From Gammaproteobacteria bacterium (lineage in GTDB: Bacteria > Pseudomonadota > Gammaproteobacteria > G965277405): 64,000 bases of DNA. Below, piece after piece: positions 14,365-64,000 of the stretch (within the stretch, counting starts at the first letter, position 1; each line of letters begins with the position of its first letter). The notes beneath the pieces are model-generated. The model made no database searches, was not told the origin of the DNA, and saw only the letters and a list, made by a program, of their open reading frames with translations. The DNA is taken from positions 887,128 to 951,127 of the forward strand of contig OZ255726.1 in NCBI GenBank assembly GCA_965277405.1. Direction: 5' to 3'. The position numbers were made by a program, and so were the translations under genes.

Positions 14365-14647
14365 TGAAGCTCTGATTAATTCCATGATGGGCGAGACGGA
14401 GAAAAAACGCTGATGATAACTAGACGCAGCACTTGATAATACTGGTGGTATTATCAAGTGCTGCAACGACGTTAGCGCAGCGTTTTTTCCCGTCCTTCTG
14501 TTGAATATACAACGGTTTGATGGTAGCGGTACTTGCTGTGTTGCATCCCTTGGCGTATATGCTATGGCATGCGCCTGCGGAATGCGCCTTGCAATCATCA
14601 GCAATTGCCATCAAACTCGCCCCATCAGCGACTTAATCAGAGCTTCC
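14365..14647 (+). mobile_element. MITE copy 1 (283 bp) with a perfect 4-bp TSD TTAG
   Basis: About 30-bp TIRs (TGAAGCTCTGATTAATTCCATGATGGGCGAG ... CTCGCCCCATCAGCGACTTAATCAGAGCTTCC). TTAG occurs at 14361-14364 and 14648-14651. It is about 90-95% identical to copies 2-6. Confidence 0.85.
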
Positions 14648-22501: not shown

Positions 22502-22787
22502 GGAACCTCTGATTAATTCCATGATGGGCGAGACGGAGAAAAAACGCTGATGAAACTTAAGCGCAGTGCGCAGATAATACTGGTGGTATTATCAAGTGCT
22601 GCAACGACGTTAGCGCAGCGTTTTTTTTCCGTCCTTCTATTGAATATATGATGGTTTGCCTACAAGCGGTACTTGCTGTGTTGCATCCCTTGGCGTATAT
22701 GCTACGGCATGCGCCTACGGAATGCGCCTTGCAATCATCAGCAATTGCAGGCAAACTCGCTCCATCAGCAAGTTAATCAGAGGTTCC
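22502..22787 (+). mobile_element. MITE copy 2 (286 bp), inserted exactly at the pnp stop codon
   Basis: It has both TIRs. The flanks are CTAA (22498-22501, containing the pnp TAA) and CGAA, a 1-mismatch TSD. Confidence 0.85.
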
Positions 22788-25601: not shown

Positions 25602-25886
25602 GGAAGCTCTGATTAACTCGCTGATGGAGCGAGTTTGCCTGCAATTGCTGATGATTGCAAGGCGCATTTCGCAGGCGTATGCCGTAGCATATACGCCAAG
25701 GGATGCAACACAGCAAGTACCGCTTGTAGGCAAACCATCATATATTCAATAGAAGGACGGGAAAAAACGCTGCGCTAACGTCGTTACAGCACTTGATAAT
25801 ACCACCAGTGTTATCTGCGCACTGCGTCTAGTTATCATCAGCGTTTTTTCTCCGTCTCGCCCATCATGGACTTAATCAGAGCTTCC
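25602..25886 (-). mobile_element. MITE copy 3 (285 bp), in reverse orientation
   Basis: Both TIRs are present. The flanks are CTAG / TTTG with no TSD. It is about 95% identical to the reverse complement of copy 5. Confidence 0.85.
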
Positions 25887-45626: not shown

Positions 45627-45910
45627 GGAACCTCTGATTAAGTCCATGATGGGCGAGACGGAGAAAAAACGCTGATGATAACTAGACGCAGTGCGCAGAT
45701 AATACTGGTGGTATTATTAAGTGCTGCAACGACGTTAGCGCAGCGTTTTTTCCCGTCCTTCTGTTGAATATACAACAGTTTGATGGTAGCGGTACTTGCT
45801 GTGTTGCATCCTTTGGCGTATATGCTACGGCATACGCCTGCGGAATGCGCCTTGCAATCATCAGCAATTACCATCAAACTCGCTCCATCAGCGACTTAAT
45901 CAGAGGTCCC
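45627..45910 (+). mobile_element. MITE copy 4 (284 bp) with a perfect TSD CTAA. It is inserted between the plsC stop and the hemA start.
   Basis: CTAA occurs at 45623-45626 and 45911-45914. The right TSD contains the plsC stop (TAG on the minus strand). The hemA ATG is 11 bp from the left end. Confidence 0.88.
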
Positions 45911-46838: not shown

Positions 46839-46841
46839 TCT

Positions 46842-48020: not shown

Positions 48021-48887
48021 ATGAATGGAAAGTTTTTATATTACCAAGGTGTTTACGCAGAGGCAGAAAAATACCCATTTTTGCTGGCTCATGCGCTGCA
48101 TTATGCAACGTCCGTTTTCGAAGGGATACGAGTTTACAATGGCGCACCATTTTTGCTCGAAGAGCATCTCTCACGGCTGATAACCTCTTGCGAACTCATC
48201 GGCATTGATTGTCCGGCAACGGTCCAAGAACTATCCAAGATCTGCTACAACCTTATCGACAAGACTGGGGTGCAAAATGCCTACCTAAGACCGGTGGTAT
48301 TCAAAGGCGGTCCCGATCTTGGCGTGTATGCACCCAAAAACACGATTGAGTTAAGTGTCATCATCTGGGAATGGCCATCAGTCTTCGGCGCAGCTGCGGT
48401 TTCTAAGGGAATATCGCTAACTTCAGATATCCCTTATAGACGACCGCCACCAACGTGTTTTCCAACTCAAGCAAAGAGTTCAGCAGCGTATCTCATAGGC
48501 GCAATTAACCGGCAAAAAGCGGAAAACGACGGCTTCAATGACGCCCTACTTTTCACCCACGCAGGGATGGTTGCGGAAGCAACTGGCGCCAATATTTTTT
48601 TAGTCAATGGCAACACTGTTACTACACCACCTGCAAATGATTTCCTCAATGGCCTTACCCGCCAGACGGTGATTGGATTGCTGGCAAGCGGTCAAGTTGA
48701 GGAAAGAGAAATCACGTTGGATGATGTTAAATCGGCAGATGAGGTCTTTCTCACTGGCACTGCCTACGAAGTAATTGGCGTCTCAAAAATTGACGATTGT
48801 GAAAAATCCGTTGGTCAATTTACCAGCAACATTCGCAATGCCTACCTCAAACTTACCAAAACAACCAACCTTAAAGGCGCGGCCTGA
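48021..48887 (+). CDS. Class IV PLP-dependent aminotransferase (branched-chain / D-amino-acid aminotransferase family)
   Basis: The EGIRVY motif and 288-aa length fit the fold-type IV family (IlvE/Dat/PabC). Confidence 0.75.
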   Translation: MNGKFLYYQGVYAEAEKYPFLLAHALHYATSVFEGIRVYNGAPFLLEEHLSRLITSCELIGIDCPATVQELSKICYNLIDKTGVQNAYLRPVVFKGGPDLGVYAPKNTIELSVIIWEWPSVFGAAAVSKGISLTSDIPYRRPPPTCFPTQAKSSAAYLIGAINRQKAENDGFNDALLFTHAGMVAEATGANIFLVNGNTVTTPPANDFLNGLTRQTVIGLLASGQVEEREITLDDVKSADEVFLTGTAYEVIGVSKIDDCEKSVGQFTSNIRNAYLKLTKTTNLKGAA

Positions 48888-49085
48888 ACACGACAGAATG
48901 TATGATGGCTGCTAACACCAAAATTCGCAAAATTTACACGCTTGGCCCTGGAGGCACAAACTGCGCAGCAGCGGCTGCTGAACTCTGTCGATCTGGTGGA
49001 GTAGCAGCCTGTATACCAACATTACCTGCAGCCAAAGCCAAATGAAAAAGCACTTTCTGCACGACGCAAACCTGCGGGGCTGCTG

Positions 49086-50042
49086 ATGATAGGTATTAGT
49101 CACCCTTTTTCAAAACACATGCGGCTGTTGGCGCTGACGATCAGTATTCTTGCCTGCTTCACAGCAAGCTGGGTGTTGGCTAAAAACATCATCGAAAGTG
49201 CCCCTGCGTATGCTTCGGCTACCGGCCGGGTGTTGGCGACTAGTCTGTTCCTTTGGGCTTTTCTCCTACTCCGTCCTGGCGAACGCGTAAAGTCGATGGT
49301 AGTGTTGCGCCGCTGGCCAGCTATCATCGTATTAGCTTTGCTGGGTTTTGTCCTGTATTCGCTACTGACATTTCTCGCCTTGACGGTGCTAAATCCATCG
49401 GATCTGGGAATGACGCTGGCGCTTATACCTGGGTTTACCTACGTGCTTGGGTTGGCTTTTTTTAGCGACCAAATTCACCATCTCAAATTGCTCGGTGTTT
49501 CTTTGGCCAGCGGGGCGGCGCTATACTACACCACCAACGGCTTCCTAAGTTTGACAACAGCAGATGCTTTTGGAATCACAATGGCAGCGGGGGCGGCACT
49601 TAGCTATGCCCTGTATGGTTTAACGTATAAAAAGCTCATGGCAGACTTGCCCACAACAAGCGTGTTACCGTTTATCACTGCCGTTGCTTTCCTCATGTTG
49701 CTACCCTGGTTGCTGTTTGTCAGCCCAGCAGAAAGGTCAATTGACCTTTGGACAGCTGCTAAATTGCTGATGCTCGGTGCTGGGCTGTCTGCGCCAGTAT
49801 TCTTAATGTATCATGCCGTGCTTGATTTAGGCGGGGTGCTGTATGCAAATTCAATCGGAATTCTTGCGCCTTTTGCGATCTTACTCACCGAATGGGGCTG
49901 CGGCTATCGCAGTAGCGTCAGCCTAGGAGAACTAAGCGCGATGGCGATCTGTGCAGTCGGCGTCGCTTTAATTTTTAAAGACGCCGCCAGACCAAATCGC
50001 GTATCTGCGAACATCGCCGTATCTAACCGCCCCACTGATTAG
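49086..50042 (+). CDS. DMT-superfamily (EamA-like) transporter
   Basis: Ten predicted TM helices in two EamA-like halves. Confidence 0.7.
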   Translation: MIGISHPFSKHMRLLALTISILACFTASWVLAKNIIESAPAYASATGRVLATSLFLWAFLLLRPGERVKSMVVLRRWPAIIVLALLGFVLYSLLTFLALTVLNPSDLGMTLALIPGFTYVLGLAFFSDQIHHLKLLGVSLASGAALYYTTNGFLSLTTADAFGITMAAGAALSYALYGLTYKKLMADLPTTSVLPFITAVAFLMLLPWLLFVSPAERSIDLWTAAKLLMLGAGLSAPVFLMYHAVLDLGGVLYANSIGILAPFAILLTEWGCGYRSSVSLGELSAMAICAVGVALIFKDAARPNRVSANIAVSNRPTD

Positions 50043-50064
50043 GATAATTTAGGAGGAATACTAT

Positions 50065-50347
50065 GGAAGCTATGATTAAGTCCATGACGGGCGAGACGGA
50101 GAAAAAACGCTGATGATAACTAGACGCAGTGCGCAGATAATACTGGTGGTATTATCAAGTGCTGCAACGACGTTAGCGCAGCGTTTTTTTCCGTCCTTCT
50201 GTTGAATATATGATGGTTTGCTGCAGCGGTACTTGCTGTGTTGCATCCCTTGGCGTATATGCTACGGCATGCGCCTGCGGAATGCGCCTTGCAATCATCA
50301 GCAATTGCAGGCAAACTCGCTCCATCAGCGACTTAATCAGAGCTTCC
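50065..50347 (+). mobile_element. MITE copy 5 (283 bp) with a perfect TSD CTAT. It is inserted between the SD and start codon of the ATP-grasp gene.
   Basis: CTAT occurs at 50061-50064 and 50348-50351. The AGGAGG SD at 50051-50056 is now separated from the ATG (50350) by the element. Confidence 0.9.
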
Positions 50348-50349
50348 CT

Positions 50350-51615
50350 ATGGGCCTTACATTAGGGTTGGTCTGTCAGCGCAATAACAACGTGCCGTTC
50401 CTATTTGAAGCAGCGGCAGCCAATCGATGTGGTTTAGTACTTATTCACGCACCCGGTGAATCTCCCCCGACGCATATGCCAGCTGTTGTCCACACGTTGG
50501 AGCTCGACGTATTTGCTCATCCACAAGCCGCGCTCTCACAGCTTGAGGCTGAAAAAATCGGACTAGATGGCATATTAACCTGCCGTGAAGAGGCTGTGCC
50601 CTGGACTGCCTTAGCAGCCCAACGCCTCAAACTACCTGGACTCAACCCCGATGCGGCACTCATCACCCGCGATAAAGCACAGATGAGAAAAGCTTTTGCA
50701 GTGGCGGGGTTAAATGTTCCAAGCTATACCTCCCTGTCAGCAGACGCCCCAGTAACACTATCCGCTAGCATGTCATACCCGCTAGTCGTCAAACCCACAG
50801 GTGGCTACGCAAGCCAAGGTGTCATTCGCGTTGATAAAGCGAGTGATCTGAAAAATACAGTAGCTAAAGTGCGAGCAATCAATGCCAATGACCTCGACGC
50901 TTTCGCCACCACTACCAGCGGAATCAATTGGGGCGCTGTTATCGTTGAAGAGTATATCGACGGCCCCGAATATGCAGTAGAGGTGTTTGCAACCGAAGGG
51001 CGGGTACATGTACTCTCCATTGGTTACAAAGGCGAGCCCAAGGGTCCTTACTTTGAGGAGACAGTTTACCTCGCGCCACCACACCTCGCGCCAGCTACAC
51101 ATAAGGCAATTGTGGAGCAAGCAATTGGCGGCATGGAATCTTTAGGCCTTACTGACGGCCCAGGCCACTGCGAGTTAAGACTGCAAAATAGCACGAAACC
51201 CTATCTGCTTGAGATTGGAGCAAGGATCGGCGGGTCTGGGGTAAGCCAATTTATAGTACAGGAAAGTTCAGGAATTGATTATGCTGGCCTACAGTTCCGC
51301 CAGTCCGCCAAGTCCTCCCTTCCCGAACTTCCTGACATAGCGACGCCAATCGCGACTGCAGGAAACTGGATTATCCCACTCGGTGGTCATGGAAAATTGG
51401 TTGATATTGCAGGTCTACAAGTGGTTCATGAGCATCCAGAAACCAAGCGCGTGCTAACCTTCCTCGAACCTGGCACCGCTGTGCAACCCTATCCAATTTT
51501 CAGTGGGTATCCAGGTTTCGTGTTATCACGCCACACCGACTGGCAGTCTGGTATAGACTATCATCGCTGGCTCAGCCAAAAACTCCGTACACATTGGGTG
51601 GAGGTAGAAACTTAA
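50350..51615 (+). CDS. ATP-grasp domain protein (carboxylate-amine / L-amino-acid ligase-like)
   Basis: ATP-grasp motifs (PLVVKPTGGYASQGV...EEYIDGPEYAVE...ELRL...LLEIGARIGG). The start at 50350 is reconstructed from the pre-insertion site. The track ORF start at 50218 lies inside the MITE. Confidence 0.75.
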   Translation: MGLTLGLVCQRNNNVPFLFEAAAANRCGLVLIHAPGESPPTHMPAVVHTLELDVFAHPQAALSQLEAEKIGLDGILTCREEAVPWTALAAQRLKLPGLNPDAALITRDKAQMRKAFAVAGLNVPSYTSLSADAPVTLSASMSYPLVVKPTGGYASQGVIRVDKASDLKNTVAKVRAINANDLDAFATTTSGINWGAVIVEEYIDGPEYAVEVFATEGRVHVLSIGYKGEPKGPYFEETVYLAPPHLAPATHKAIVEQAIGGMESLGLTDGPGHCELRLQNSTKPYLLEIGARIGGSGVSQFIVQESSGIDYAGLQFRQSAKSSLPELPDIATPIATAGNWIIPLGGHGKLVDIAGLQVVHEHPETKRVLTFLEPGTAVQPYPIFSGYPGFVLSRHTDWQSGIDYHRWLSQKLRTHWVEVET

Positions 51616-51671
51616 ATCGCCTGTTAATCCTATGTTATCGCTATGCAGTTAGCAGATTATGCCGCTCTTAT

Positions 51672-51701
51672 TACATACTAATACATACTAATACATACTA
51701 T
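51672..51701. repeat. 10-bp x3 tandem repeat (ATACATACTA) in the convergent intergenic region between ATP-grasp and gatC
   Basis: Read directly from the sequence. Confidence 0.85.
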
Positions 51702-51982
51702 AAAATTTTCGGAACTGTATAAAAATGGTCAGTAACATAGGGATTATCCCTTTGCAGCTCTGCTCTGCTATGGTGTTTGGCAACAATATCTGCGCGCAAT
51801 GGCTGTGCTTGTTCCAATGGGGTGTGGAGGGGTTCTAACCCTGTCACGTCGATTGTTTTCATTGTTTCAATCATTTGTAAAACATTTTCAAGATCAGCGC
51901 TGAATGCGGCAGCTTGCTCATCACTCAGTTGAAGTTTTGCCAGTGTGCAGAGTTTTTGTATGTCGATATGTAACGGCGTCAT
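51698..51982 (-). CDS. gatC: Glu-tRNA(Gln)/Asp-tRNA(Asn) amidotransferase subunit C
   Basis: A 94-aa GatC-family protein. No gatA or gatB is adjacent. A MITE TIR-like 13-mer (GAACCTCTGATTT) lies 8 nt upstream of the start. Confidence 0.8.
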   Translation of the reverse strand: MTPLHIDIQKLCTLAKLQLSDEQAAAFSADLENVLQMIETMKTIDVTGLEPLHTPLEQAQPLRADIVAKHHSRAELQRDNPYVTDHFYTVPKIL

Positions 51983-51984
51983 AT

Positions 51985-52730
51985 TTAATGAACCTCTGAT
52001 TTAAAATGTTTACATGAATATCGCTGTGCTTGGACAGCTGTCATTGCGCTGGTCGCTATAATATCGTCAATACTGCAACCACGCGAGAGCTCATTCACTG
52101 GTTTGTTTGACCCTTGTAAAAAGGTCCAATCGCAGTCCCTCCGCCCATTCGCCCATTCGCCCATTAGTTGCGCAATTGTATCGCCACTATTCGCAACCTC
52201 TAGCGCTGGAAATATTAAAACATTGGCGCTGCATTGGCTGATTATTAACCAACCACAACCAATCACCATCAACAACCGCGTGCTATTGTGCCACGCTGGT
52301 ATGAATATGCAGTATATTTTTGCTTGTAAACTGTCGCAGCCATGAGTTTTGTGATCCCCAGCAATGGCACATATGCATGCGTCGCCGGGTAATTGCATGC
52401 TGCATGCAACAGATATTGTTCTTGTGTATCAATATAATCTTCTATAAACGGCGGATACCACAGCGGTAGTGGGTCGTAGCACGTAGTAAGCTGTTCAAGG
52501 TATGCGCTGCACCAATGCTGCCGTACATTTGTTTGCTTCCTTTTTACAGCACTTTGATAAACGCTTCTTGTATTGTCATTTGTATCATATACCGCTCCTG
52601 CTAAATAATTTCTCAGTAACGACCTATGGTCAATCAAGATAATGCGAGATTGAATAGCAACCGCGCAGCAACTGTACTGAATTTTGCACCATGCAGACAC
52701 ATCCAACAATAATTGCTGCGTAACTATCAC
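51985..52730 (-). pseudogene. Cys-rich hypothetical reading frame split over two overlapping ORFs (52269-52730 and 51985-52398). It is possibly a frameshifted remnant.
   Basis: The two ORFs lie in different frames and overlap by 130 nt. I recognise no family, and a (CGCCCATT)x3 repeat lies at 52142-52165. Confidence 0.25.
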
Positions 52731-52882
52731 GCTTGTCCAAACTCCCCCCAGCTACGAAAGCACCACCGCCCCATTAAAAAATCTATGCTGCATACCAACT
52801 ATCAACGCCTAAACTATAAATTCTAAATAGTTATGTCTCGCTTCACAATTGGTGCGGGCAAATACAATCCCAAAGCATCTAG

Positions 52883-53026
52883 GGAACCTCTGATTAAGTC
52901 CATAATGGGCGAAACGGAGCAAAAACGACGTGAGCACAGCGTTTTTCCTGTTCCTCTGTTGCATATACTGTTCAATATACAACGGTTTGGAGCAATTGCT
53001 GCATCAGCGCCTTAATTAGGACTTCC
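52883..53026 (+). mobile_element. Internally deleted MITE derivative (144 bp) retaining both termini
   Basis: The left end is GGAACCTCTGATTAAGTCCATAATGGGCGAAACGGAGCAAAAACG and the right end is ...GCGCCTTAATTAGGACTTCC. The flanks are CTAG / TTAA. Confidence 0.7.
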
Positions 53027-53149
53027 TTAAGTCAAAAAATCTAAAAATGATTCATATGGGGTATACGGCATACGTTTATCATATTATCATATTATCATTA
53101 GTCATATTACAACACTTGCTATTTACAAGCTTTGCCTAAGGAGAAATAC

Positions 53150-54949
53150 ATGACTGCTTCTATGCCTAATCGTCTATTCAACACCCCGATAGATACGCAA
53201 GACGATATAACAGCACTTATTCCTGATTTCCCGTTTGATTACGCAGTTTTCTTGGACACCGCTAAGATCAATCGCAAACCGTTGTTCAATATTCCTTCAG
53301 CCAATTATGGACAAGAAGTCTGTATTGTTGGAGGTGGCATGGCCGGCTTGACGGCAGCATACGAACTTATGAGAAGCGGACTCAAACCGATCATTTTTGA
53401 AGCTGATCGGATTGGCGGGCGTATGGACGCTAAGCCGATGAGTAACTCCGGCACATTGGCTGAAATGGGTTCGATGAGGTTTCCGCTAAGTGGGAAAGCA
53501 TTGTTCCACTATATCAATAAGGTTGGAGCCTATACTGCGCCATTTCCAAACCCAGGTACAGCTGCATCTTTTGGGAATCTGGTCAATTACCGCGGCGAAA
53601 ACTTCTATTACGAACGTGATAGTAAAAATTTCCCGATACCATCACACTTCGTTGCGCTTGAGCAAGATTGGCAGGACATGCTGGACGGTTCACCGACCAA
53701 TTTTCAGCAGATGCGCCAGGCGCTAATTCGCAAGGATATAACTACGATCAAGAGAATATGGAATAATCTTATCACGGGGACGGAGAGCATAGACAGTTTT
53801 GATAACATCAGTTTTTACAACTATCTAAAGATGTACGGCAACTGGTCAATGGATGAAATTGACCTGTTTGGTCAAGTGGGCTTTGGCACAGGTGGATGGA
53901 ATACAGATTTTCCAAACTGTATACTTGAGGTCCTTAGGGTCGCGATGACCTACCTTGATTCCGACCACCAGTTGATTTATGAAGGCTCCACTTTTGTACC
54001 TAGCTCACTTCTACAGCAGACCCCTAGTGTATTGGGTGACGTCATGGTGCATTGGTCTGAAAATACAACTGTTCAGTCTCTAACAGAATCGGTCTTGAAT
54101 AGTGTATCTGGCAACAAAGTTAATGCTTTTCAACCTTCTAACAGCGACACTAACAAAATCAAAGTTGAATACTCAGGTCCGAATGGCGAAAAGAAATCCC
54201 GAGATTTCAGTGCTGTAATTTACACTCCTCAAGTGCGCTGCCTACAGCAAATGGGTCATAATTACGCTGAACAAAATTCCTATAGCATTCTTACCCAGGA
54301 TATTATCGAAGCAGTTCAATACACTCACTACATGCAATCAGCAAAAACATTCATTGAGCTTAAAACACCATTCTGGAAGGAACGCGATTCAACTACCGGA
54401 AAGTATAAGATGAGTATCACTCTTACAGACCGTAAGACACGTGGGACCTATCTTCTTGACTATACCCGCGATGATGAAACACCGCGTCCTGTTGTATGCA
54501 TCTCATACACTTGGAACGATGATGCGCTGAAATATCTTCCGCTTAAATCCGCCGACCGTCTATATGGAGGAATTACGACCCTGTACGACATTGATCCAAA
54601 TTTAATGGGGCATCTGGGGCATGAGGTGACCGGCGACCCCATTACTATCTCCTGGGAAAACGAACTGTTCTACCTTGGTGCCTTCAAAAATAACCTTCCT
54701 GGCCAATACAGAATGCAAAGACGCCTGTTCACTCAGTTCATGCAAAATACAAGCTCGGTCAAAGATCGTTTTATCTTGGCAGGTGACGACATTTCTTGGA
54801 CGGCTGGATGGGCAGAAGGAGCAGTATCAACTGCCATAAATGCAGCAAATGCCGTCGCGGGCTTGTTCGAAGGCTCAACTTATCAAAATAACTCTGATCC
54901 TGTAAGCCGTTTTAATGACTTAAAGCCGGTCGAACTGAATGCTGTTTGA
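53150..54949 (+). CDS. Flavin-dependent amino-acid 2-monooxygenase (oxidative decarboxylase) of the Trp/Lys/Arg 2-monooxygenase - amine oxidase family
   Basis: The FAD dinucleotide motif VCIVGGGMAGLTAAYEL..GGR is present. By my recollection it resembles lysine 2-monooxygenase DavB-type sequences, for example the conserved block FGQVGFGTGGWNTDFPN. The SD AAGGAG is 6 nt upstream of the ATG at 53150. Confidence 0.75.
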   Translation: MTASMPNRLFNTPIDTQDDITALIPDFPFDYAVFLDTAKINRKPLFNIPSANYGQEVCIVGGGMAGLTAAYELMRSGLKPIIFEADRIGGRMDAKPMSNSGTLAEMGSMRFPLSGKALFHYINKVGAYTAPFPNPGTAASFGNLVNYRGENFYYERDSKNFPIPSHFVALEQDWQDMLDGSPTNFQQMRQALIRKDITTIKRIWNNLITGTESIDSFDNISFYNYLKMYGNWSMDEIDLFGQVGFGTGGWNTDFPNCILEVLRVAMTYLDSDHQLIYEGSTFVPSSLLQQTPSVLGDVMVHWSENTTVQSLTESVLNSVSGNKVNAFQPSNSDTNKIKVEYSGPNGEKKSRDFSAVIYTPQVRCLQQMGHNYAEQNSYSILTQDIIEAVQYTHYMQSAKTFIELKTPFWKERDSTTGKYKMSITLTDRKTRGTYLLDYTRDDETPRPVVCISYTWNDDALKYLPLKSADRLYGGITTLYDIDPNLMGHLGHEVTGDPITISWENELFYLGAFKNNLPGQYRMQRRLFTQFMQNTSSVKDRFILAGDDISWTAGWAEGAVSTAINAANAVAGLFEGSTYQNNSDPVSRFNDLKPVELNAV

Positions 54950-55002
54950 CAGGAAATTTGGCAGCGGTGTCTAAACTAGCGCTGAACAGCGTTGTAGCCT
55001 AG

Positions 55003-55294
55003 GGGATCTCTGATGAACTAGCTGACGGAATGAGTTTGCCTGCAATTGCTGATGATTACAAGGCGTAGAGCGCATGACCTAGCTATACGCCAAGGGATGC
55101 AATACAGCAAGCGTAAGCAATTGCCGCAAACCAAAAGTGTATTCAACACAACGACGGAGAAAAAACGCTGTGCTACCGTCGTTGCAGCACTTGGCAATAC
55201 CCACAGGACCCACCAATATTATCTGCGCACTGCGCTTAAGTTTCATCAAGCGTTTTTCTCCGTCTCGTCCAGCATGGACTGAATCAGAGCTTCC
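55003..55294 (-). mobile_element. MITE copy 6 (292 bp), in reverse orientation, between the monooxygenase and ureohydrolase genes
   Basis: Both TIRs are present (GGGATCTCTGATGAA... / ...GACTGAATCAGAGCTTCC). The flanks are CTAG / TTTA with no TSD. Confidence 0.82.
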
Positions 55295-55562
55295 TTTATG
55301 GGACAGCCGCTGAGTTCACTTGTCAACCAGACCGCGTGGAGTGTAGTAACTAATACGTTGAAATCTTCAAGCCTAGTGCCCGATAGTCGAAAAATAATGC
55401 AGGTTGCGCGCTTAGAACCTTACAGAAGCTTAATAATATGACACTCCAACTATTCAGACCTAACATCGTATAAAAACAGCCTATTTGTGCAGCACGTCTG
55501 TTTAATCTAGGTAATTTCTAAGCTATAATTCGTTTTCGCAGTATATTTTGGGGGAATGGAAT

Positions 55563-56516
55563 ATGGTGCCAAAAGAATATTTTCAACCGTTAAGTGGCAA
55601 CGAAATGCCCCGTTTTGCTGGGCTGTCTACTATGATGCGTCTGCCTGCTAAGCACACTGCACTTGACCTTGATGCCTGTTTTATCGGTATCCCGTTAGAT
55701 ATTGGCACATCGAACCGATCAGGAACACGCTTTGGACCGCGACAAATACGTGCTGAGTCTAGCATGCTGCGCCCCTATAATATGGCGACTGGTGCGGCAC
55801 CCTTTGATGCCATGCGGGTTGCCGATATCGGTGATGTGCCAATTAATACATTTAATTTAAAAGACAGTATACAGCTAATTTCAAAGTATTATTGCGATCT
55901 GCTAAAACATGATGTTATTCCTCTAACGATGGGCGGGGATCATACGATTAGCTTCCCTATTTTGCAGGCAATCGCGGCCAAACATGGACCAGTAGCTTTA
56001 ATCCACATTGACGCTCACGCCGACATTAATGACGAGATGTTTGGTGAAAAAATTGCCCATGGCACACCCTTTAGACGGGCCTTTGATGATGGTTTACTGA
56101 ACAACGACAAGGTTTTCCAGATAGGATTGCGCGGCACAGGATATTCACCAGAAGACTTTAACTGGTCCCGTCAACAAGGGTGGACGGTTGTTCAAGCCGA
56201 AGAGTGCTGGGGCAAATCTCTTGCACCATTAATAAAGAATATCAGCAAAAAAATCGGCAACACCCCAACGTATATCACCTACGATATTGACAGCCTTGAC
56301 CCGGCATTTGCACCTGGCACTGGTACGGTAGAGATAGGTGGGTTGACCACATGGCAGGCTTTGGAACTCGTGCGGGGATGTGCTGGTCTTAATATCGTAG
56401 GAGGTGATCTGGTTGAGGTGTCACCACCGTATGACCCCAGCGGCAATACCGCTTTAATTGCAGCAAATCTGCTGTATGAAATGCTCTGCGTGCTACCAAA
56501 AAACTATCAAGACTGA
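55563..56516 (+). CDS. Arginase-family ureohydrolase (agmatinase / guanidinobutyrase / guanidinopropionase-like)
   Basis: The binuclear Mn motifs GGDHTIS, DAHADIND and SLDPAFAPGTG are present. The protein is 317 aa. The ATG at 55563 is preceded by a GGGGGA SD. Confidence 0.85.
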   Translation: MVPKEYFQPLSGNEMPRFAGLSTMMRLPAKHTALDLDACFIGIPLDIGTSNRSGTRFGPRQIRAESSMLRPYNMATGAAPFDAMRVADIGDVPINTFNLKDSIQLISKYYCDLLKHDVIPLTMGGDHTISFPILQAIAAKHGPVALIHIDAHADINDEMFGEKIAHGTPFRRAFDDGLLNNDKVFQIGLRGTGYSPEDFNWSRQQGWTVVQAEECWGKSLAPLIKNISKKIGNTPTYITYDIDSLDPAFAPGTGTVEIGGLTTWQALELVRGCAGLNIVGGDLVEVSPPYDPSGNTALIAANLLYEMLCVLPKNYQD

Positions 56517-56542
56517 CTAAATCTAAACAGGGAGAAAATAAT

Positions 56543-57646
56543 ATGTCGAAACGCAAACAAACAATCAAATTGAGCCGCCGCGCCTTTGTCGGCACTGCGA
56601 TTACAGCAGGAGTTGTGGCGGCCTCAATAGGCGCGCCTTCAATCTTACGGGGAGCAGCAGATCGAACCCTCAAAGTGGGGGTATACGGCGGTTACTTTCA
56701 GGAATCTTTCGACAAGCATATTTTTCCTGATTTTACAACTGCAACGGGTATCAAGCTTGAATCAATTGGAGAGCCGACAGGTGAAGCATGGTTGGTACAG
56801 CTGATGGCGGCTGCGCGGGCAAACCAAGCGCCTGCTGATGTCTCGATGATGGCACAAGTTGCACGTTTGAAAGGTGAGAAAGCAAAACTTTGGGGAGCGT
56901 TGGATGATAGCGCATTAACGAATGCTGCTAACTTACCTGATCACTTCGTGCACCGGTATGAAGATGGCAAAATCAATAGCTTAGGCGCTGTGGCTTGGTA
57001 TGTCACATTGGTTACAAACACTGATGTTTACAAAGATGCGCCAACATCATGGAAATCTTTATGGGATTCGGCAAATGCTGATAGTCTTGGCCTTATGGCA
57101 CTCGTAACCAACTCTTTTCTTTTAGAAATCACAGCTAAGACATGGTTCGGTGGCACCGGAATCTTGGACACAAAAGATGGCATTTTGCAGACCATGCACA
57201 AGCTGGAAGAAGTAAAACCAAACGTGCGACTGTGGTATCGCGACGAAGGTCAATTCCAGCAAGCCTTGGAAACTGGCGAGATCCCTATGGGCGAGTATTA
57301 TCACGATGTTACTGGACTGGCTGCGTCTGCAGGAAAGCCTGTAAGATCAACGTTCCCAGTAGAAGGTGGGGTGCTTGACTCAGGGTCTTGGTGTGTTTCC
57401 AAAGCATCCAAAAAAGTGACAGAAGCACAAGAATTCATCAACTATATGTGCCAACCTGAAATTCAAGCTAAACTGTCGCGTTTCGTCGGTACGGCACCAA
57501 CTGTACGGCGTGATCTGACGGATTTGACCGATGAAGAATATGCCGCAGTTGCAAGCCCCATTGATCCAATCATCCCACGTTATGATTTATATAGCGAACG
57601 TGAAGATTGGCTGACTCAAAAATGGTCTGAATTGGTAACTGGATAA
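56543..57646 (+). CDS. Periplasmic polyamine-type substrate-binding protein (PotF/PotD-like) with a Tat signal
   Basis: The twin-arginine motif SRRAFVGTAI is followed by an SBP family 1 fold. It is the first gene of a PotFGHI-ordered operon. Confidence 0.8.
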   Translation: MSKRKQTIKLSRRAFVGTAITAGVVAASIGAPSILRGAADRTLKVGVYGGYFQESFDKHIFPDFTTATGIKLESIGEPTGEAWLVQLMAAARANQAPADVSMMAQVARLKGEKAKLWGALDDSALTNAANLPDHFVHRYEDGKINSLGAVAWYVTLVTNTDVYKDAPTSWKSLWDSANADSLGLMALVTNSFLLEITAKTWFGGTGILDTKDGILQTMHKLEEVKPNVRLWYRDEGQFQQALETGEIPMGEYYHDVTGLAASAGKPVRSTFPVEGGVLDSGSWCVSKASKKVTEAQEFINYMCQPEIQAKLSRFVGTAPTVRRDLTDLTDEEYAAVASPIDPIIPRYDLYSEREDWLTQKWSELVTG

Positions 57647-57672
57647 ACCAATACTGGCTCGCCAAAAAATTT

Positions 57673-58764
57673 TGACGGGGACCATACACATCAACTATTG
57701 CGAGAATATTCATTAGCCAGGTTAAAATTGAAAATTTCACAAAGAAATTTGGTCATTTTACCGCCGTTGATAACGTCTCTCTTGATGTTGCTGATGGTAG
57801 TTTAGTCTGCTTGCTTGGTCCTTCTGGTTGCGGCAAGACGACTTTGCTGCGCTTGATTGCTGGTTTAGAAGACCTGACAGCAGGAAAATTAACGGTTGGC
57901 GGCGAAGATTATGGCGAGGTTCCAGCGCATAAACGTAATTTTGGGATGGTATTTCAATCTCTAGCTCTTTTCCCGCATCTGACAGTCGGCGAAAATATTG
58001 CATATCCGCTTAAGATCAGGGGAGCTTCTGCCACCAAGCAGCGAACTCGTGCAACCGAATTGCTCGAATTGGTAAAACTGGCAGGTCTGGAAGATCGCAA
58101 AATTTATCAACTATCTGGTGGTCAGCGGCAACGCGTGGCAATCGCACGTGGTCTAGCAATTGACCCCAACGTATTTTTGTTAGATGAACCGCTTTCGGCA
58201 CTTGATGCCAATTTACGGGAACATATGCAGATTGAACTCAGACAATTGCAACAAGATTTGGGCGTAACAACAATTGTAGTGACCCATGACCAGCGTGAGG
58301 CCATGTCGATGGCTGATATAGTTATTGTTATGGAAGCAGGAAAAGTACAACAAGTTGGATCGCCCATCGACATTTATCGTAACCCAGAAAACACCTTTGT
58401 CGCCAATTTTATCGGCGTCAACAATTTACTAACAGGACAGATGCTCGACGCAACAACCTTTGATTTTGACGGCAATCATATCGACCTTACGGACGATGAT
58501 AGCGTACATTACGAAATTGGCAGGCCAGCCATATTATCATTTCGGCCTGAGGATGTCGTTGTATCTACTAAAAAAGGTAGCGCACAACTTAACGGTGAAG
58601 TTCTTTTTATTCGCGATCTGGGGGCAAGCGTAGAGATTTTGACCCGTGTTGGCGATATTGAGATCACTGCGGTTTGTGCGCCCAAACATCGACCAGATGT
58701 GAATATTGGTGATGTCGTCTGGCTTGAGATCCACACTGGTCGCACAACGGTACTGGCATCATAA
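57673..58764 (+). CDS. ABC transporter ATP-binding protein (PotG/PotA-like). The start codon is uncertain and may be non-canonical.
   Basis: Walker A (GPSGCGKTT), LSGGQ, Walker B and a C-terminal TOBE domain are present. A conserved N-terminal segment (VKIENFTKKFGHFTAVDNVSL) lies upstream of the track start (a TTG at 57811). The only in-frame candidate starts there are the TTG at 57673 or ATT/ATA codons. Confidence 0.75.
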
Positions 58765-58772
58765 GCACGCGC

Positions 58773-59606
58773 ATGTCTTTGTTTAAGGATAATAAAGGGG
58801 TTAGCTATGCACTGCTAATGTTGGTCGTATTTTTCTTTATTCCCTTTTTGATTATGTTTGCGGTCAGCTTCTTCAATCGAGACGAAGGTGCATTTTTTCA
58901 TACCGCCTTTGAGTTGAATAACTATGTGCGTTTCCTAACGCCGTTCTTCGGAAAAGTACTGTTAACATCGCTTGGCCTGTCCATAGCGACGGCTGTCATT
59001 TCTGTATCAGTTGCCCTGCCATTCACCTATTTCGTGACCCGTATGTCAGCGGTTCGGCAATCGATTATTCTGGTTTTTCTATTGTCAGTGTTATCGCTAT
59101 CAGAAGTCATAATCGGTTTTGCATGGTCCATCTTGTTGTCAAAGACAGCAGGCGTGGGCAACCTGCTAGCTGCGCTCGGAATTCTTGAAGCATCAAAGAG
59201 TTTTACGCCCAGTCTGGGTGCATTACTGCTCGGCGTGACTTATCTTGGGTTTCCCTACGCGGTTTTGGTGATCTACCCCGCCTTGTCGCGGCTTGACCCT
59301 GAGATTCCCGAAGCGGCGCGGATGTTTGGCGCATCTCCAATCAAAAGCTTCCTAAATGTCACTGTCCCTTTGATGAAAAACACCATTATAGGAACGCTCA
59401 TTCTGGTGTTCGCCTTCACCTTGGGTGCATATCTGTTGCCACAGGTGCTGGGTCGCCCCCAGCATTGGACATTATCCGTACATATTACTGACCAGGCAAT
59501 TTTTCAATCTAATCTTCCATTTGCGGCAGCAATGGCTATCTTCTTGATGCTTGTCTCATTGGCATTGGTTGGGCTGTCGGCACTGGTCATCAAAAAAACG
59601 GCATAA
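58773..59606 (+). CDS. ABC transporter permease (PotH/PotB-like)
   Basis: There are six TM segments and an EAA loop (EAARMFGASP). Confidence 0.85.
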   Translation: MSLFKDNKGVSYALLMLVVFFFIPFLIMFAVSFFNRDEGAFFHTAFELNNYVRFLTPFFGKVLLTSLGLSIATAVISVSVALPFTYFVTRMSAVRQSIILVFLLSVLSLSEVIIGFAWSILLSKTAGVGNLLAALGILEASKSFTPSLGALLLGVTYLGFPYAVLVIYPALSRLDPEIPEAARMFGASPIKSFLNVTVPLMKNTIIGTLILVFAFTLGAYLLPQVLGRPQHWTLSVHITDQAIFQSNLPFAAAMAIFLMLVSLALVGLSALVIKKTA

Positions 59607-59609
59607 CTC

Positions 59610-60407
59610 ATGTCCAAGCTGATAAAAAACACTTTTATCCTGCTGGTCTTGGTATTCCTTGCCGCGCCACTTGTTGTTGTTCTTGGTGTCTCCTTAAATA
59701 AATCCAAGCAGATGTTGTTCCCGCCTGAAGACTTTTCGCTACATTGGTATGCTGATTTTTTTCAGGCAAAGGATTGGCTAAATGCGTTGAGCAATTCTCT
59801 GGTTATTGCGCTTGGGGCAAGCACGCTTGCAGTCTCAATTGCCTTGCCGTTGGCACTCTACATTTGGCGAAAACAGAACAGCCTCGCCAAAGCACTTTTT
59901 GGGCTTGGCGTCGCGCCGTTCATGCTGCCACCAGTCATTTCTGCACTCGGCTTTATGATATTCTGGATAACCATCGGATTTTACGGGCAAATCTCTGCAA
60001 CGATAATTTCTCATGGAGTATTTCTGGTGACACTACCACTTGTCACGATTTCACTGGGTCTTGATTCCATCGACAAACAGTTGATTGAAGTCTCGCGCAC
60101 CATGGGAGCCGACAAGAGAACAGTCTTGCGAACAATTATCTGGCCGTTGGTAAGGCCCTACATGGTTTCAGGTTTTGCCTTTGCGTTCGTCCTCAGCCTG
60201 AACGAGTATATTATCGCATATATGGTGTCAGGCTTTACAGCGGAAACACTGCCAATCAAAATATTCAATTCGCTTAGATATGGCTATACACCAGTCATGG
60301 CTGTTGTTGCGGTGTTTTTCGTGATGACTGCGGTTGTGGTATTCGGAACCTTTGCTCTGTTTGGGGATTTGCCTAAACTTTTGGGCGCAGAGAGAGCGGA
60401 CAAATGA
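59610..60407 (+). CDS. ABC transporter permease (PotI/PotC-like)
   Basis: There are six TM segments and an EAA-like loop (EVSRTMGADKRTVLRTIIWPLVRP). Confidence 0.85.
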   Translation: MSKLIKNTFILLVLVFLAAPLVVVLGVSLNKSKQMLFPPEDFSLHWYADFFQAKDWLNALSNSLVIALGASTLAVSIALPLALYIWRKQNSLAKALFGLGVAPFMLPPVISALGFMIFWITIGFYGQISATIISHGVFLVTLPLVTISLGLDSIDKQLIEVSRTMGADKRTVLRTIIWPLVRPYMVSGFAFAFVLSLNEYIIAYMVSGFTAETLPIKIFNSLRYGYTPVMAVVAVFFVMTAVVVFGTFALFGDLPKLLGAERADK

Positions 60408-61213
60408 GTGGAACTGATAAAGAAATGATCTTAGGTCTTTGGCAAGGCGTCGGTATCCGCGGTGAGGTGACGTCGAACATCGAAGACATTCAGCGAATAG
60501 CAATACAGGCAGCTGCTGAGGGTGTCGAACTTCTGGTTTTTCCCGAATGTTTTTTGACGGGATACTTAGCGTCGGCAGATGTAGCAGAGATCGCAGCGCA
60601 AGTAGATGGTCTTGTCTTTGATAAATTGGAGAGCATCGCGGATGAATACAACATCGCCTTGGTTGTTGGCTCCTATGAAGTCTCCACGCGAGGGGTCTAT
60701 AATGCGGCCTTTGTCGTGCATCCTGGAATAGGATTAGTCGGAATTTATCGAAAACGCATGCTCTATGGCGCTTGGGAAAAGCGGACATTCCAGCAAGGCA
60801 CCGAACCGCTGACCTTCAAATGGAAGGGACTAACAGTCGGGGTGTTGATCTGCTTTGATATTGAGTTTCCAGAGCGCACCAGAGAATTGGCAAACTTAGG
60901 AGTCGATTTGATTGTTACACCAACCGCACTGATGGAGCCGTTTGCTAAAATTTCATCGCTTGTTGTCCCAACGCGGGCGCTGGAAAACGGTATATATGTA
61001 GGCTACGCAAACCGGATAGATCGTGAAGAAGAATTTGAATATGTCGGTGGTAGTTGTATTATTGCCCCAGATGGGACGGATATGGCGCGGGCGGAAAAAG
61101 CAACAGCAACGCTGCTGACTGCTAGTATATCAACACAATACCGCGATTTGATAACATCAAAAATCAACTACCTTGTTGAAGTTTCTCGCGAAAATACGCA
61201 TGTCATTGATTGA
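60404..61213 (+). CDS. Carbon-nitrogen hydrolase family amidase (nitrilase superfamily, DavA/omega-amidase-like)
   Basis: The catalytic glutamate context LLVFPECFLTGY, the Cys context VLICFDIEFPE and a 269-aa length fit the CN-hydrolase family. The start overlaps the upstream permease stop. Confidence 0.8.
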   Translation: MSGTDKEMILGLWQGVGIRGEVTSNIEDIQRIAIQAAAEGVELLVFPECFLTGYLASADVAEIAAQVDGLVFDKLESIADEYNIALVVGSYEVSTRGVYNAAFVVHPGIGLVGIYRKRMLYGAWEKRTFQQGTEPLTFKWKGLTVGVLICFDIEFPERTRELANLGVDLIVTPTALMEPFAKISSLVVPTRALENGIYVGYANRIDREEEFEYVGGSCIIAPDGTDMARAEKATATLLTASISTQYRDLITSKINYLVEVSRENTHVID

Positions 61214-61264
61214 GTATCCCCGCACAATGAAAAATGCAACATCAGGAATGGTTGCTTATCTTTA

Positions 61265-61302
61265 ACAACGAGGATATGCGCTAACAACGAGGATATGCGC
61301 TA
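61265..61302. repeat. 19-bp x2 perfect tandem duplication (ACAACGAGGATATGCGCTA)
   Basis: Read directly from the sequence, in the intergenic region upstream of the second SBP gene. Confidence 0.85.
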
Positions 61303-61510
61303 AGCATAAAATTCCACATTCTCCAGCAAGGACTCCTACTGCGGCTGTAGCCCTTAAGATCTGCACCAGTTGAGAACACCTATCCGGCAACAATAACAAC
61401 CTTTAATTAGAGGTTGTCAAGCAACAATTATTGCGAGTTTTCTTCTTGTAACTCCTCTAATTTTAGAGGGGATATCATGATGCCGAAAAAATAAAACATC
61501 TATGTAAATT

Positions 61511-61563
61511 GTGATATAATGTAAACTAAGTGTGTTGGATGTACTGGATGCATAGATGCATCC
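61511..61563 (+). promoter_or_regulatory. Candidate sigma70 promoter with an extended -10 (TGaTATAAT at 61512-61520), followed by a palindromic operator-like site GGATGCAT-AG-ATGCATCC (61546-61563) and an extra GGATG half-site
   Basis: TATAAT lies 67 nt upstream of the ATG at 61587. An 8-bp perfect inverted repeat lies between the -10 and the SD AAGGAG (61575-61580). Confidence 0.45.
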
Positions 61564-61586
61564 AAACGAACAACAAGGAGAAAAAT

Positions 61587-63170
61587 ATGACCAAAATGCT
61601 TAAGCAATCTCTGATTACGTCGATAATTAGCAAGACGGGGCAACAAGATGATAATAATAGCCGCAGTACGCAGACAATACTGCTGGGTATTATCGAGTAC
61701 TTTAACGACCTTCGCGCAGCGCTGTTTGCCGCCGATGTGTTGAAGATACTGTTGGTTTACGGTACATGTTGTGTTACTCGCTTGGCGGATATGCTCAGGT
61801 CTGCGGTTTGCGCCTTGCAATCATCAGCAATTGCCATCAAGCTCGCCAATCAGCGCCTTAATCAGAGCTTCCTTAGAATACTAGCTATTTCTGCCACAGT
61901 ATTTGTCACATTGCCGGTTTTGGCAAAGGACACTCCTGTTACTTGGTGGTATGAACGCGCCACCCCTGAGCAACAAGCTGCACTGTCGGAACTGATGATT
62001 GATAAATTCAATGCTGCTGACAATGGCAACACTCTCACAATCGACTACCGTGGCAACGAATTGGATAAGCAGCTGCGGATTGCACTTTTATCAGGAACTG
62101 GTCCGGATGTAGTCAATACACCTGGTCCGTCTTTCGTGGCAACAATGGCACGCGCTGGGCAATTGCTGGCACTCGATGATATCGCTGTTAAAAAAGGCTG
62201 GAACGACCGAATCCTGCCATTCTTCATGGATTTGGGTCGGTTCGATGGCCATCTGTATGCGCTGCCAAAAACCTATGAAACACTTGGATTGTTCTACAAC
62301 AAAAAGGTCATGGCAGAGAATGGCTGGGCGGTACCTACAACTCTTGCAGAACTGACGACAGTTGCCGATGCAATGCTGTCTAAAAACATTATCCCATTTG
62401 GGTCTGGCAACTCGGACTGGCGTCCAGCCAACGAATTTCAGGTATCAATTGCTCTCAACTCCATCGCTGGTCCAGACAACATGCAAAAAGCGCTAACAGG
62501 TGAGTTGCCGTGGACGGCAGAACCTTTTGCCAAAGCCATCAATACACTAGATAGCTGGTGGAAAAAAGGCTATTTTGGACCTGACTACTTCTCACTCACC
62601 GGTGATCAGGTCATGGCTAACCTGGCTAATGGTTCTGCTGCGATGGTGCCAACCGGCACATGGAACTTCCAACTAGTCCCAGAATATTTTGGCGATCAAC
62701 TTGACAACATTGGTTTTGTAGGTTTTCCCAGCGGCGAAGGAGTGGCATACCCAATATACGCACTTGGCATTGGCTCCACACTCTCTATCGCGGCAAAAGC
62801 CAACAACCCTGAAGGTGCTGCCAACGTCATTGATTTTATCTTTAGTAAAGGTTTCTATCAGGACATGAACAGTGTTTGGCAAGGTGAGTGGAACATGCCG
62901 CTGCGTGACCTCAGCAACGTAAAACTGAGCGAAGATATCATCCCGCTGTATACGGAATCTATGGCTGCCTTGGCTGAATCCGTGAATCAAAGTCAATACG
63001 GTTACACTACTTGGACGTTCTTCCCTCCTGCAAGCAACTCTTACATTGTGAGTGGCATCGAGCAAGTTTGGCTGGATGATATTACTACCGAAGAATTCCT
63101 CGCAGAACTTGATGATATTTTCAAGCAGGAATTGGCTGAAGGCAAAGTCGCGGATATCCCTGCGCGTTAA
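61587..63170 (+). CDS. Periplasmic substrate-binding protein (SBP family 1) of a CUT1-type ABC importer. A MITE is inserted in frame inside its signal-peptide coding region.
   Basis: An SBP_bac_1-like mature domain is present. The ATG at 61587 follows an SD. Codons 1-5 (MTKML) are followed by a 91-codon MITE-derived insertion and then RILAISATVFVTLPVLA|KDTP. The frame stays open through the element. Confidence 0.75.
   Translation: MTKMLKQSLITSIISKTGQQDDNNSRSTQTILLGIIEYFNDLRAALFAADVLKILLVYGTCCVTRLADMLRSAVCALQSSAIAIKLANQRLNQSFLRILAISATVFVTLPVLAKDTPVTWWYERATPEQQAALSELMIDKFNAADNGNTLTIDYRGNELDKQLRIALLSGTGPDVVNTPGPSFVATMARAGQLLALDDIAVKKGWNDRILPFFMDLGRFDGHLYALPKTYETLGLFYNKKVMAENGWAVPTTLAELTTVADAMLSKNIIPFGSGNSDWRPANEFQVSIALNSIAGPDNMQKALTGELPWTAEPFAKAINTLDSWWKKGYFGPDYFSLTGDQVMANLANGSAAMVPTGTWNFQLVPEYFGDQLDNIGFVGFPSGEGVAYPIYALGIGSTLSIAAKANNPEGAANVIDFIFSKGFYQDMNSVWQGEWNMPLRDLSNVKLSEDIIPLYTESMAALAESVNQSQYGYTTWTFFPPASNSYIVSGIEQVWLDDITTEEFLAELDDIFKQELAEGKVADIPAR
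61604..61872 (+). mobile_element. Diverged MITE copy (269 bp) inserted in frame within the SBP gene. Flanks are TTAA / TTAG.
   Basis: The left end is GCAATCTCTGATTACGTCGATAAT...GACGGGGCAACAAGATGATAATAATAGCCGCAGTACGCAGACAATACTGCTGGGTATTATCGAGTAC. The right end ...GCGCCTTGCAATCATCAGCAATTGCCATCAAGCTCGCCAATCAGCGCCTTAATCAGAGCTTCC aligns along the full length of the family consensus. Confidence 0.8.
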
Positions 63171-63264
63171 ATCCTGACTAACAACAATGGTGTGCCAGGC
63201 TAGATTATGCCGCAACTATGTTAAAAAATAGTTGAAAAATAGTTAAAAAATACTGAAATTGCCG

Positions 63265-64000
63265 ATGCACCGTTTGTTTGTTATACCGACATTGCTCATC
63301 AGCGTTTCTATCATCATGTTACCAGCAATATTAACCATATTGCTTGCATTCTTAAGATGGGATGGGGTTTCTGTCCCGCAGTTTATTGGCCTAGAAAATT
63401 TTGAGAAACTTTGGAATGATCGTATTTTTTGGCGCTCACTCGCAAATAACTTAAAATGGACAGTTCTGTTTATGACGTTTCCCATCATAATCGGCCTTGT
63501 CGCTGCCTCTTTGTTGTTGATTGTGAAACGAGGTAAGACATTCTTTCAGGTTATCTACTTTTTGCCAGTCATCATTGCGTCCGTGATTACGGCGCGTATT
63601 TGGCAAGGTATGATCTACAACCCGCAAACGGGCATTGTGGCATTGCTGAATCGATATGGGTTTGAGTTGAACGATCCGCTCGCCCGCATGTCTTCCGCGC
63701 TCTACGGCGTGGCTGTGGTTGATCTTTGGCACTGGTGGGGGTTCATTGCGATGATTTTCTTTGCGTCCCTGCGGCAGGTTCCGACCGAACAGATCGAAGC
63801 TGCGCGGATTGATGGGGCTAGCTACTTGCAACAAATGCGCTGGGTGCTGATCCCCGCAATCAAACCAACGATCACACTGATGATGATCATGACCGTGATC
63901 TGGTCGTTCCTTGTCTTCGATTTCATCTACGTTATGACCCAAGGCGGTCCTGCGTTTTCTAGCGAAGTTCTTTCAACAATGTCCTATCGCGAGGCGTTTT
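63265..64000 (+). CDS. ABC transporter permease of the MalF/UgpA (CUT1) type. Partial: the 3' end runs off the window.
   Basis: The ORF is open from the ATG at 63265 to the window end. There are multiple TM helices and the EAA motif (IEAARIDGASYLQQMRWVLIP). It is not in the ORF track because no stop lies within the window. Confidence 0.8.
   Translation, partial: MHRLFVIPTLLISVSIIMLPAILTILLAFLRWDGVSVPQFIGLENFEKLWNDRIFWRSLANNLKWTVLFMTFPIIIGLVAASLLLIVKRGKTFFQVIYFLPVIIASVITARIWQGMIYNPQTGIVALLNRYGFELNDPLARMSSALYGVAVVDLWHWWGFIAMIFFASLRQVPTEQIEAARIDGASYLQQMRWVLIPAIKPTITLMMIMTVIWSFLVFDFIYVMTQGGPAFSSEVLSTMSYREAF

Follow-up and report, generated by a model that had tools for sequence, protein, structure and literature searches.

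An in-frame MITE copy within the signal-peptide region of a gammaproteobacterial solute-binding protein gene

How can a gene hold a transposon copy within the export signal of its product and still be under constraint? The question is posed by a solute-binding protein (SBP) gene in a 64,000-nucleotide stretch of the genome of a gammaproteobacterium (assembly GCA_965277405.1, contig OZ255726.1, positions 887,128 to 951,127 of the forward strand; hereafter the window, to which all coordinates refer). The SBP gene (61587-63170, + strand) is a single uninterrupted frame of 527 amino acids. Residues 1-5 (MTKML) are followed by a 91-residue segment (residues 6-96) contributed by the insertion of a diverged MITE (a miniature transposable element with inverted repeats) of IS5 type, and then by residues 97-113 (RILAISATVFVTLPVLA), which comprise the hydrophobic core and cleavage site of a signal peptide and lead into KDTPVTWWYE. 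The reading favoured here, with a probability of roughly 0.55, is that the SBP is translated from its ancestral start codon through the element, which would give it a cleavable leader of 113 residues.

The insertion and its absence from orthologues

The 273 inserted nucleotides are accounted for by a 269-bp element and a 4-bp target duplication. A sequence-only reading, made from the letters without database searches, had proposed a diverged MITE copy inserted in frame within the amino-terminal (n-) region of the signal peptide, and this was borne out: the Shine-Dalgarno (SD) sequence, the ATG, the two duplications and the 91 stop-free codons are all present (Table 1). The 17 nt spanning the SD sequence (AAACGAACAACAAGGAG) are the same in the orthologous locus L013. 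L013 and L014 are the two loci closest to that of the window. L013 reads AAACGAACAACAAGGAGGAAAAAATGACTAAGATACTTGGAAGA without interruption and L014 has its own counterpart of this sequence, whereas the window reads AAACGAACAACAAGGAGAAAAATATGACCAAAATGCTTAA, then the element, then TTAGAATA; the match of the DNA around the insert implies that the SD sequence and the start codon are orthologous. Removal of the insert gives ATGACCAAAATGCTTAGAATACTAGCT as the reconstructed empty site. In the protein alignment the orthologues begin at the same position with MTKI, MTKL or MTHK, in agreement with the DNA alignments to L013 and L014.

The 91 residues belong to none of the related proteins. Orthologues of 436-441 amino acids, up to 87% identical, lack the segment, and in all 12 that were aligned M(T/K)xx runs straight into the hydrophobic core and the AXA cleavage site, leaving the 91 residues as a single gap. 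A search with the whole protein returned an exact 527-residue copy on a contig of 2,174,577 bp and a best other match at 87% identity; the other matches listed are about 430-445 residues long, except for one fragment of 344 residues and one fusion of 755 residues. The MITE was not found in the orthologous loci L001-L014. At E <= 0.001, none of 1.84 billion representative proteins is related to the 91-residue peptide (full HMMER scan), so that, in keeping with the sequence-only reading, no orthologue carries it as a domain. A word-index search with the same peptide also found nothing, a weak result since it missed the source protein too. In an AlphaFold2 model the leader is a featureless generic helix with predicted local distance difference test (pLDDT) scores of 31-54. 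With no homologue, no confident fold and DNA that is a member of a repeat family, the segment was rejected as a genuine domain. Annotators can probably let the call of 527 residues stand, with its 91 additional residues marked as transposon-derived.

The window contains seven full copies of the element and one 147-bp variant. The copy in the SBP gene is 76-82% identical to the six other full copies, with 7-11 gaps in alignments of 284 nt, and 79-83% identical to their consensus, from which it differs by 55-57 substitutions, five 1-nt indels and two 6-nt deletions (net -15 nt). Its left inverted repeat is degraded (GCAATCTCTGATTACGTCG; 5 of 19 positions mismatched) and its right repeat is nearly intact. 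A left repeat in this state is probably unfit for transposition, which implies that much of the decay must have taken place in situ. The copy folds as RNA with a minimum free energy (MFE) of -80 kcal/mol (z = -1.2); the five young copies, which are 92-96% identical to each other, fold at -122 to -141 kcal/mol (z = -7 to -13.5). The SBP copy is the oldest in the window and has lost the strong family hairpin.

Table 1. Features of the SBP gene, the inserted element and the other family members in the window
Feature	Position	Strand	Remarks
Extended -10 promoter-like motif TGaTATAAT	61512..61520	+	Upstream of the SBP gene; putative, read off the sequence
SD sequence AAGGAG	61575..61580	+	6-nt spacer before the ancestral ATG
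Ancestral SBP start codon	61587..61589	+	ATG ACC AAA ATG CTT = MTKML
Left target-site duplication TTAA	61600..61603	+	One mismatch to the right copy TTAG
Inserted codons (KQSL...NQSFL), 91 codons, 273 nt	61602..61874	+	Stop-free
Diverged IS5-type MITE copy, 269 bp	61604..61872	+	BLAST/alignment to six other copies; inverted-repeat search
Internal in-frame ATG (M69; ADMLRSAV)	61791..61793	+	Candidate alternative start, without SD sequence upstream
Right target-site duplication TTAG	61873..61876	+	
Original hydrophobic (h-) and carboxy-terminal (c-) region of the signal peptide	61875..61925	+	Cleavage expected after VLA; aligns with orthologue h-region and AXA site
Mature carbohydrate-type SBP (SBP_bac_1/SBP_bac_8), intact	61926..63170	+	Pfam; 86-87% identity to P0002, no frame disruption
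Downstream ATP-binding cassette (ABC) permease, same operon	63265..64000	+	Intact up to the window end
Family copy, 283 bp	14365..14647	+	Duplication TTAG/TTAG
Family copy, 286 bp	22502..22787	+	Directly after the pnp stop codon
Family copy, 285 bp	25602..25886	-	
Family copy, 284 bp	45627..45910	+	Duplication CTAA/CTAA
Family copy, 283 bp	50065..50347	+	Duplication CTAT/CTAT; on the start codon of an ATP-grasp gene
Short family variant, 147 bp	52883..53029	+	Sister strain: full insertion sequence at the same site
Family copy, 292 bp	55003..55294	-	Second most diverged

Constraint on the gene and the open frame

The protein matches PF01547 at E = 1.6e-29 over residues 129-421, and its closest Protein Data Bank entries are sugar and chitin-oligosaccharide SBPs. 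The ratio of nonsynonymous to synonymous substitution rates (dN/dS) is 0.081 against L013 and 0.108 against L014, and a three-taxon comparison assigns a dN of about 0.056 and a dS of about 0.44 to the branch of the window. The 1.3 kb of the mature SBP show neither a stop nor a frame disruption in the orthologue alignment. The element stands at about 0.2 substitutions per site from its consensus, far above the dN of the SBP on the window branch, and a neutral coding region of 1.3 kb evolving at the element's rate would be expected to show tens of indels, with a dN several times that of the SBP. The initiation region differs from that of L013 at 5 of 38 nt; the proportion of differing synonymous sites (pS) is about 0.5. 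As judged from these alignments, the SBP gene is under purifying selection. The adjoining permease is 88% identical to the L014 permease over 245 amino acids, with 0 stops (tblastn).

The open frame within the element is not a property of the family. The sequence-only reading had raised the question of whether family members are stop-poor in one frame; the six other full copies are closed in all six frames, with 1-9 stops in each, and the consensus holds a stop-dense block (CGCTGATGATAACTAG). A consensus-like copy placed at the SBP site in the same orientation would be in frame by its length (284 + 4 = 288 nt) and would terminate after 16 codons. Traced on the consensus, the frame of the SBP copy runs 2 > 0 > 1 > 0 > 1 > 2, with each 1-nt indel placed shortly ahead of the next consensus stop in whichever frame is being read at that point. 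The consensus bases along this path are already fully open, so that no substitution was needed to remove a stop.

Simulations were used to judge how often such a frame would arise by chance. Random indels alone produced an open in-frame path in 1.9% of trials, 55 random substitutions introduced no new stop in 17% of trials, and full simulations of neutral evolution, whether begun at the consensus or at any one of the six other copies, left the element open and in frame with a probability of 0.006-0.009. In random sequence of the same composition, 91 open codons have a probability of about 0.006-0.008, or of about 0.002-0.003 where divisibility of the length by three is required as well. The chance is therefore low, as the sequence-only reading had estimated, and its value of 0.01-0.02 was too high. 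The neutral probability is suggestive of selection for the open frame and is not decisive; the idea of selection against stops thus receives moderate support, for a case that was picked because it is open.

Start codon use and export

Under the favoured reading, the insertion is an old one: an IS5-family MITE would have entered the SBP gene at a TTAG target five codons from its start, in the n-region of its general secretory (Sec) signal. The copy would then have decayed in place, with degradation of the left inverted repeat, of a single base of the duplication and of the RNA hairpin. Translation would start at the conserved SD sequence and ATG at 61587 and run through the element, giving the 113-residue leader, which would end in the 17 residues of the original hydrophobic core with its AXA site. 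The core, now internal, would target the protein, and signal peptidase would cleave between VLA and KD, leaving the mature SBP unchanged. On this proposal, the insertion would have been tolerated because the region that it occupies is cut away from the mature protein.

Structure prediction leaves the SD sequence and the ATG mostly unpaired in the present mRNA as well as in that of the reconstructed empty site. Within the first 140 residues, hydrophobicity is highest in the native core (residues 95-113). Three lysines or arginines and no aspartate or glutamate are found in the 21 residues that precede the h-region, and the site between VLA and K aligns with that of the orthologues. On the Hessa scale no segment of the insert is favourable for membrane insertion (the best have +3.6 to +4.2 kcal/mol), and an added transmembrane segment that would invert the topology is therefore not expected. 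Neither a lipoprotein signal nor a twin-arginine translocation (Tat) signal was seen in the insert by eye. A core starting about 96 residues from the N-terminus may be accepted by the Sec or signal recognition particle machinery.

Several points weigh against this reading. A Sec core does not usually lie so far from the N-terminus, and one placed there could be inefficient or not function at all. A chance of about 0.7% is not extreme for a case that was noticed because its frame is open, in a genome that probably holds many copies. The five 1-nt indels cannot each have been selected singly (the minimal route from the consensus to an open frame takes two indels), and the route from a consensus-like insertion is unclear unless drift was involved. 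The SBP copy and the 147-bp element have the GCGCCTTAAT variant in common, so part of the divergence may predate the insertion, which weakens dating by the decay of the element. Moreover, the SBP locus is absent from the only sister assembly, and hence offers no comparison of empty and filled sites within the lineage. The five non-compensating shifts fit better with drift while another start served the gene, or with the insertion of a copy that had already diverged; the state of the left repeat counts against the latter.

The other start most readily available is the in-frame ATG at 61791. Translation of the functional SBP from this codon would give a 45-residue signal peptide (MLRSAVCALQSSAIAIKLANQRLNQSFLRILAISATVFVTLPVLA), in which a positively charged n-region precedes the native h- and c-regions, and the open frame upstream would be a chance by-product. 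In consensus-like copies the right-hand 175 nt or so are open in the same frame and contain an in-frame ATG, so that an internal start could have kept the gene alive straight after the insertion; it would also explain how five non-compensating indels accumulated upstream. Nevertheless, this alternative is judged unlikely. No SD-like sequence lies upstream of any of the six in-element starts (GTG 61737; TTG 61740, 61752, 61782 and 61815; ATG 61791), whereas the strong ancestral SD sequence and ATG are conserved and accessible, and ribosomes would load there anyway. In addition, the 63 upstream codons would have to be open and in register by a coincidence of about 1% (0.945^63 x 1/3). The sequence-only reading had offered either this ATG or the loss of export; the ATG is indeed there, but the dichotomy was incomplete, as it omitted read-through from the conserved SD sequence and ATG.

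A rather doubtful extension combines the two starts in time. A start inside the MITE would have served first, successive 1-nt indels would have extended the frame from the ancestral start, and the two frames would have fused as the hairpin was lost, so that the open frame was rebuilt after the insertion. If true, this would be a stepwise 'repair by read-through' of a transposon-disrupted gene, with a Sec signal working behind about 96 de novo residues.

Alternatively, the insertion may have inactivated the gene in practice: the core would no longer act as a signal, the SBP would stay in the cytoplasm, and the gene would be a pseudogene-in-waiting with a frame kept open by luck, in a MITE-rich and probably host-restricted genome. 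This would suit the depth of the h-region in the chain, the small genome (2.17-Mb contig) with its density of MITEs, the absence of the region from the sister assembly, and the disruption of the initiation region of an ATP-grasp gene by another MITE copy. The LacI regulator that lies directly upstream of the SBP gene in the orthologous loci is also missing from the window. The age of the element tells against it. With about 20% divergence and 7-11 indels in the element, the mature SBP is nevertheless free of stops and frameshifts at a dN/dS of about 0.1, the adjacent permease is intact, and the SD sequence, the ATG, the h-region and the AXA site are all preserved. Were the gene inactive, the open insert (about 0.7%) would have to be a matter of chance, and so would the intact SBP; we do not expect this reading to hold. 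That the segment is a genuine domain after all, or that errors of assembly or sequencing produced the insertion or its open frame, is scarcely credible, since at the DNA level the segment is one of a set of repeats that have inverted ends and target duplications, as a protein it has neither a homologue nor a confident fold, its identity of about 80% to all other copies makes a collapsed or misplaced repeat impossible, and the genes around the insertion are free of frameshifts.

The SBP gene is a clean natural experiment in where an insertion of about 270 bp can be tolerated, here in what would be the discarded n-region of a signal peptide. It also raises the question of whether a Sec signal in bacteria still functions with about 96 residues ahead of it.

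Known parallels, the element family and the genomic setting

The survival of MITEs in frame is already known, and the SBP case represents a variation in location, not a new kind of system. Rickettsia palindromic elements (RPEs) are inserted into protein-coding genes without loss of the reading frame (Ogata et al. 2000, Science 290:347, via review PMC10969869). As with RPEs, a small palindromic mobile element in an intact conserved gene would be read through and add a peptide without homologues, in a small and repeat-rich genome. Unlike RPE families, which have a conserved open reading frame (ORF) and lie in frame repeatedly, the present family is open in a single decayed copy; it has no sequence relation to RPEs, its host is a gammaproteobacterium, and the segment lies in a signal peptide that would be cleaved off and not in the mature fold. 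The parallel drawn in the sequence-only reading therefore applies to the way of working and not to membership. A 2024 review describes in-frame intragenic fusions of MITEs with host ORFs as 'not unusual', citing RPEs, ERIC, QMITE1 and Anabaena elements (PMC10969869), and the Coxiella elements QMITE1/2 add or replace residues of annotated proteins in cases that have been tabulated (PMC5896051). The Coxiella in-frame examples lie in the middle of ORFs or at their 3' ends, with no mention of a signal, an N-terminus or a start codon in that report (PMC5896051). A limited, non-exhaustive literature search found no reported case of a MITE inside a signal peptide.

Signal peptides with natural extensions offer a second comparison. 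In autotransporters and two-partner secretion proteins, about 25 conserved residues make up the extension, and the leader as a whole measures roughly 50. Long signal peptides with such N-terminal extensions have been described for both groups (PMC2805444). The SBP leader resembles them in that the extension precedes a classical Sec signal with n-, h- and c-regions and would be removed with it; it differs in that its 91 residues are unconserved and of transposon origin, and in that its role in export is a prediction.

The family ranges from 147 to 292 bp in size and contains no transposase gene. Full copies share the ends GGAAGCTCTGATTAAGTCC and GACTTAATCAGAGCTTCC, and a search of the window for the end sequences gave 12 matches against 0 expected. 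The inverted repeats begin with GGAAGCTCTGATTAAG, identical to those of a 1229-bp IS5-family insertion sequence (IS) in a sister strain. The 4-bp duplications are perfect in three copies (TTAG, CTAA and CTAT), have one mismatch in two, including the SBP copy, and are degraded in two; the targets TTAG, CTAA, CTAG, CTAT and TTAA are mostly YTAR, with CTAT off by one base. A 4-bp duplication at a YTAR-type target is characteristic of the IS5 group. The inverted repeats of an IS5 element, the duplications, the lack of a transposase, the number of copies and the hairpin of the young copies are all shared with IS5-family MITEs. No Rfam family reached threshold for the element, which was thus rejected as a known structured RNA, and neither a BLAST search of plasmids nor scans of genome and metagenome contig collections with one family-conserved 22-mer found the family elsewhere.

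The sister-strain contig (L015), reached via an identical hemA product, is 98.3% identical to the window over 34305-52901. The IS lies at 1510-2738 of this contig with ends GGAAGCTCTGATTAAGTCC and GTCTTAATCAGAGCTTCC, is flanked by CTAG and CTAA, and has three ORF fragments that jointly cover positions 5-285 of NF033581 'IS5 family transposase' (NCBIfam). By these matches the family is an IS5-family MITE, the parent IS being identified from a degraded copy with a broken transposase. The SBP case thus comes with an annotated, hitherto uncatalogued family of IS5-derived MITEs and its parent IS, in a divergent gammaproteobacterium with a small genome. At one and the same CTAG target the window has the 147-bp variant and the sister strain the 1229-bp IS, and synteny ends exactly there, which suggests recombination between copies or the replacement of one element by the other. 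Intact copies fold (z down to -13.5) into an inverted-repeat stem around two long internal hairpins. In the copy at 14365 the left hairpin arm is altered to a perfect complement of its partner (GCAGCACTTGATAATAC and GTATTATCAAGTGCTGC), which may reflect structural constraint or conversion.

Copies of the family lie repeatedly on start and stop codons. At 50065-50347, the original AGGAGG and ATG of the ATP-grasp gene now head a 16-codon stub that ends in a TGA of the element, and a rebuilt ATG without an SD sequence follows the element end at 50350; the same insertion is present in the sister strain, and where the frame of the ATP-grasp gene enters the right end of the element, its phase is that of the SBP frame. 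The duplication at 22498-22501 overlaps the stop codon of pnp (TAA within CTAA), and that at 45911-45914 overlaps the stop codon of an acyltransferase gene (TAG on the - strand within CTAA). A TA-centred 4-bp target seems to favour insertion at stop codons and in AT-rich initiation regions. The copy at 45627-45910 ends 11 nt (the 4-bp duplication plus 7 nt) upstream of the start of hemA, the glutamyl-tRNA reductase gene on the - strand, which leaves no room for an SD sequence of hemA's own.

Polynucleotide phosphorylase places the host among divergent Gammaproteobacteria, with a best outside match of 65% identity (Pseudomonadales, Endozoicomonas, Teredinibacter). The relatives of the SBP are found on metagenomic contigs, at 87%, and then in alphaproteobacterial metagenome-assembled genomes, at 75-78%. 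The sister contig loses synteny with the window at 52.9 kb, and the SBP gene falls into a single-member cluster with no counterpart in the sister assembly. The same holds for the five genes looked up at 56543-61213, which comprise a polyamine-type ABC operon and the gene of a nitrilase-family hydrolase. The two genes at 53132-56516 encode an amine oxidase and an arginase-family protein. The part of the window from 53132 to 64000 may be an accessory or horizontally acquired region.

A consensus promoter scan, which demands a -35 box, did not list the -10-like motif upstream of the SBP gene (61512-61520). Two repeats also precede the gene: a near-perfect tandem 19-mer (AACAACGAGGATATGCGCT, twice) at 61262-61300, and a perfect 9-bp inverted repeat (TGGATGCAT-AG-ATGCATCCA) at 61545-61564, just before the SD sequence.

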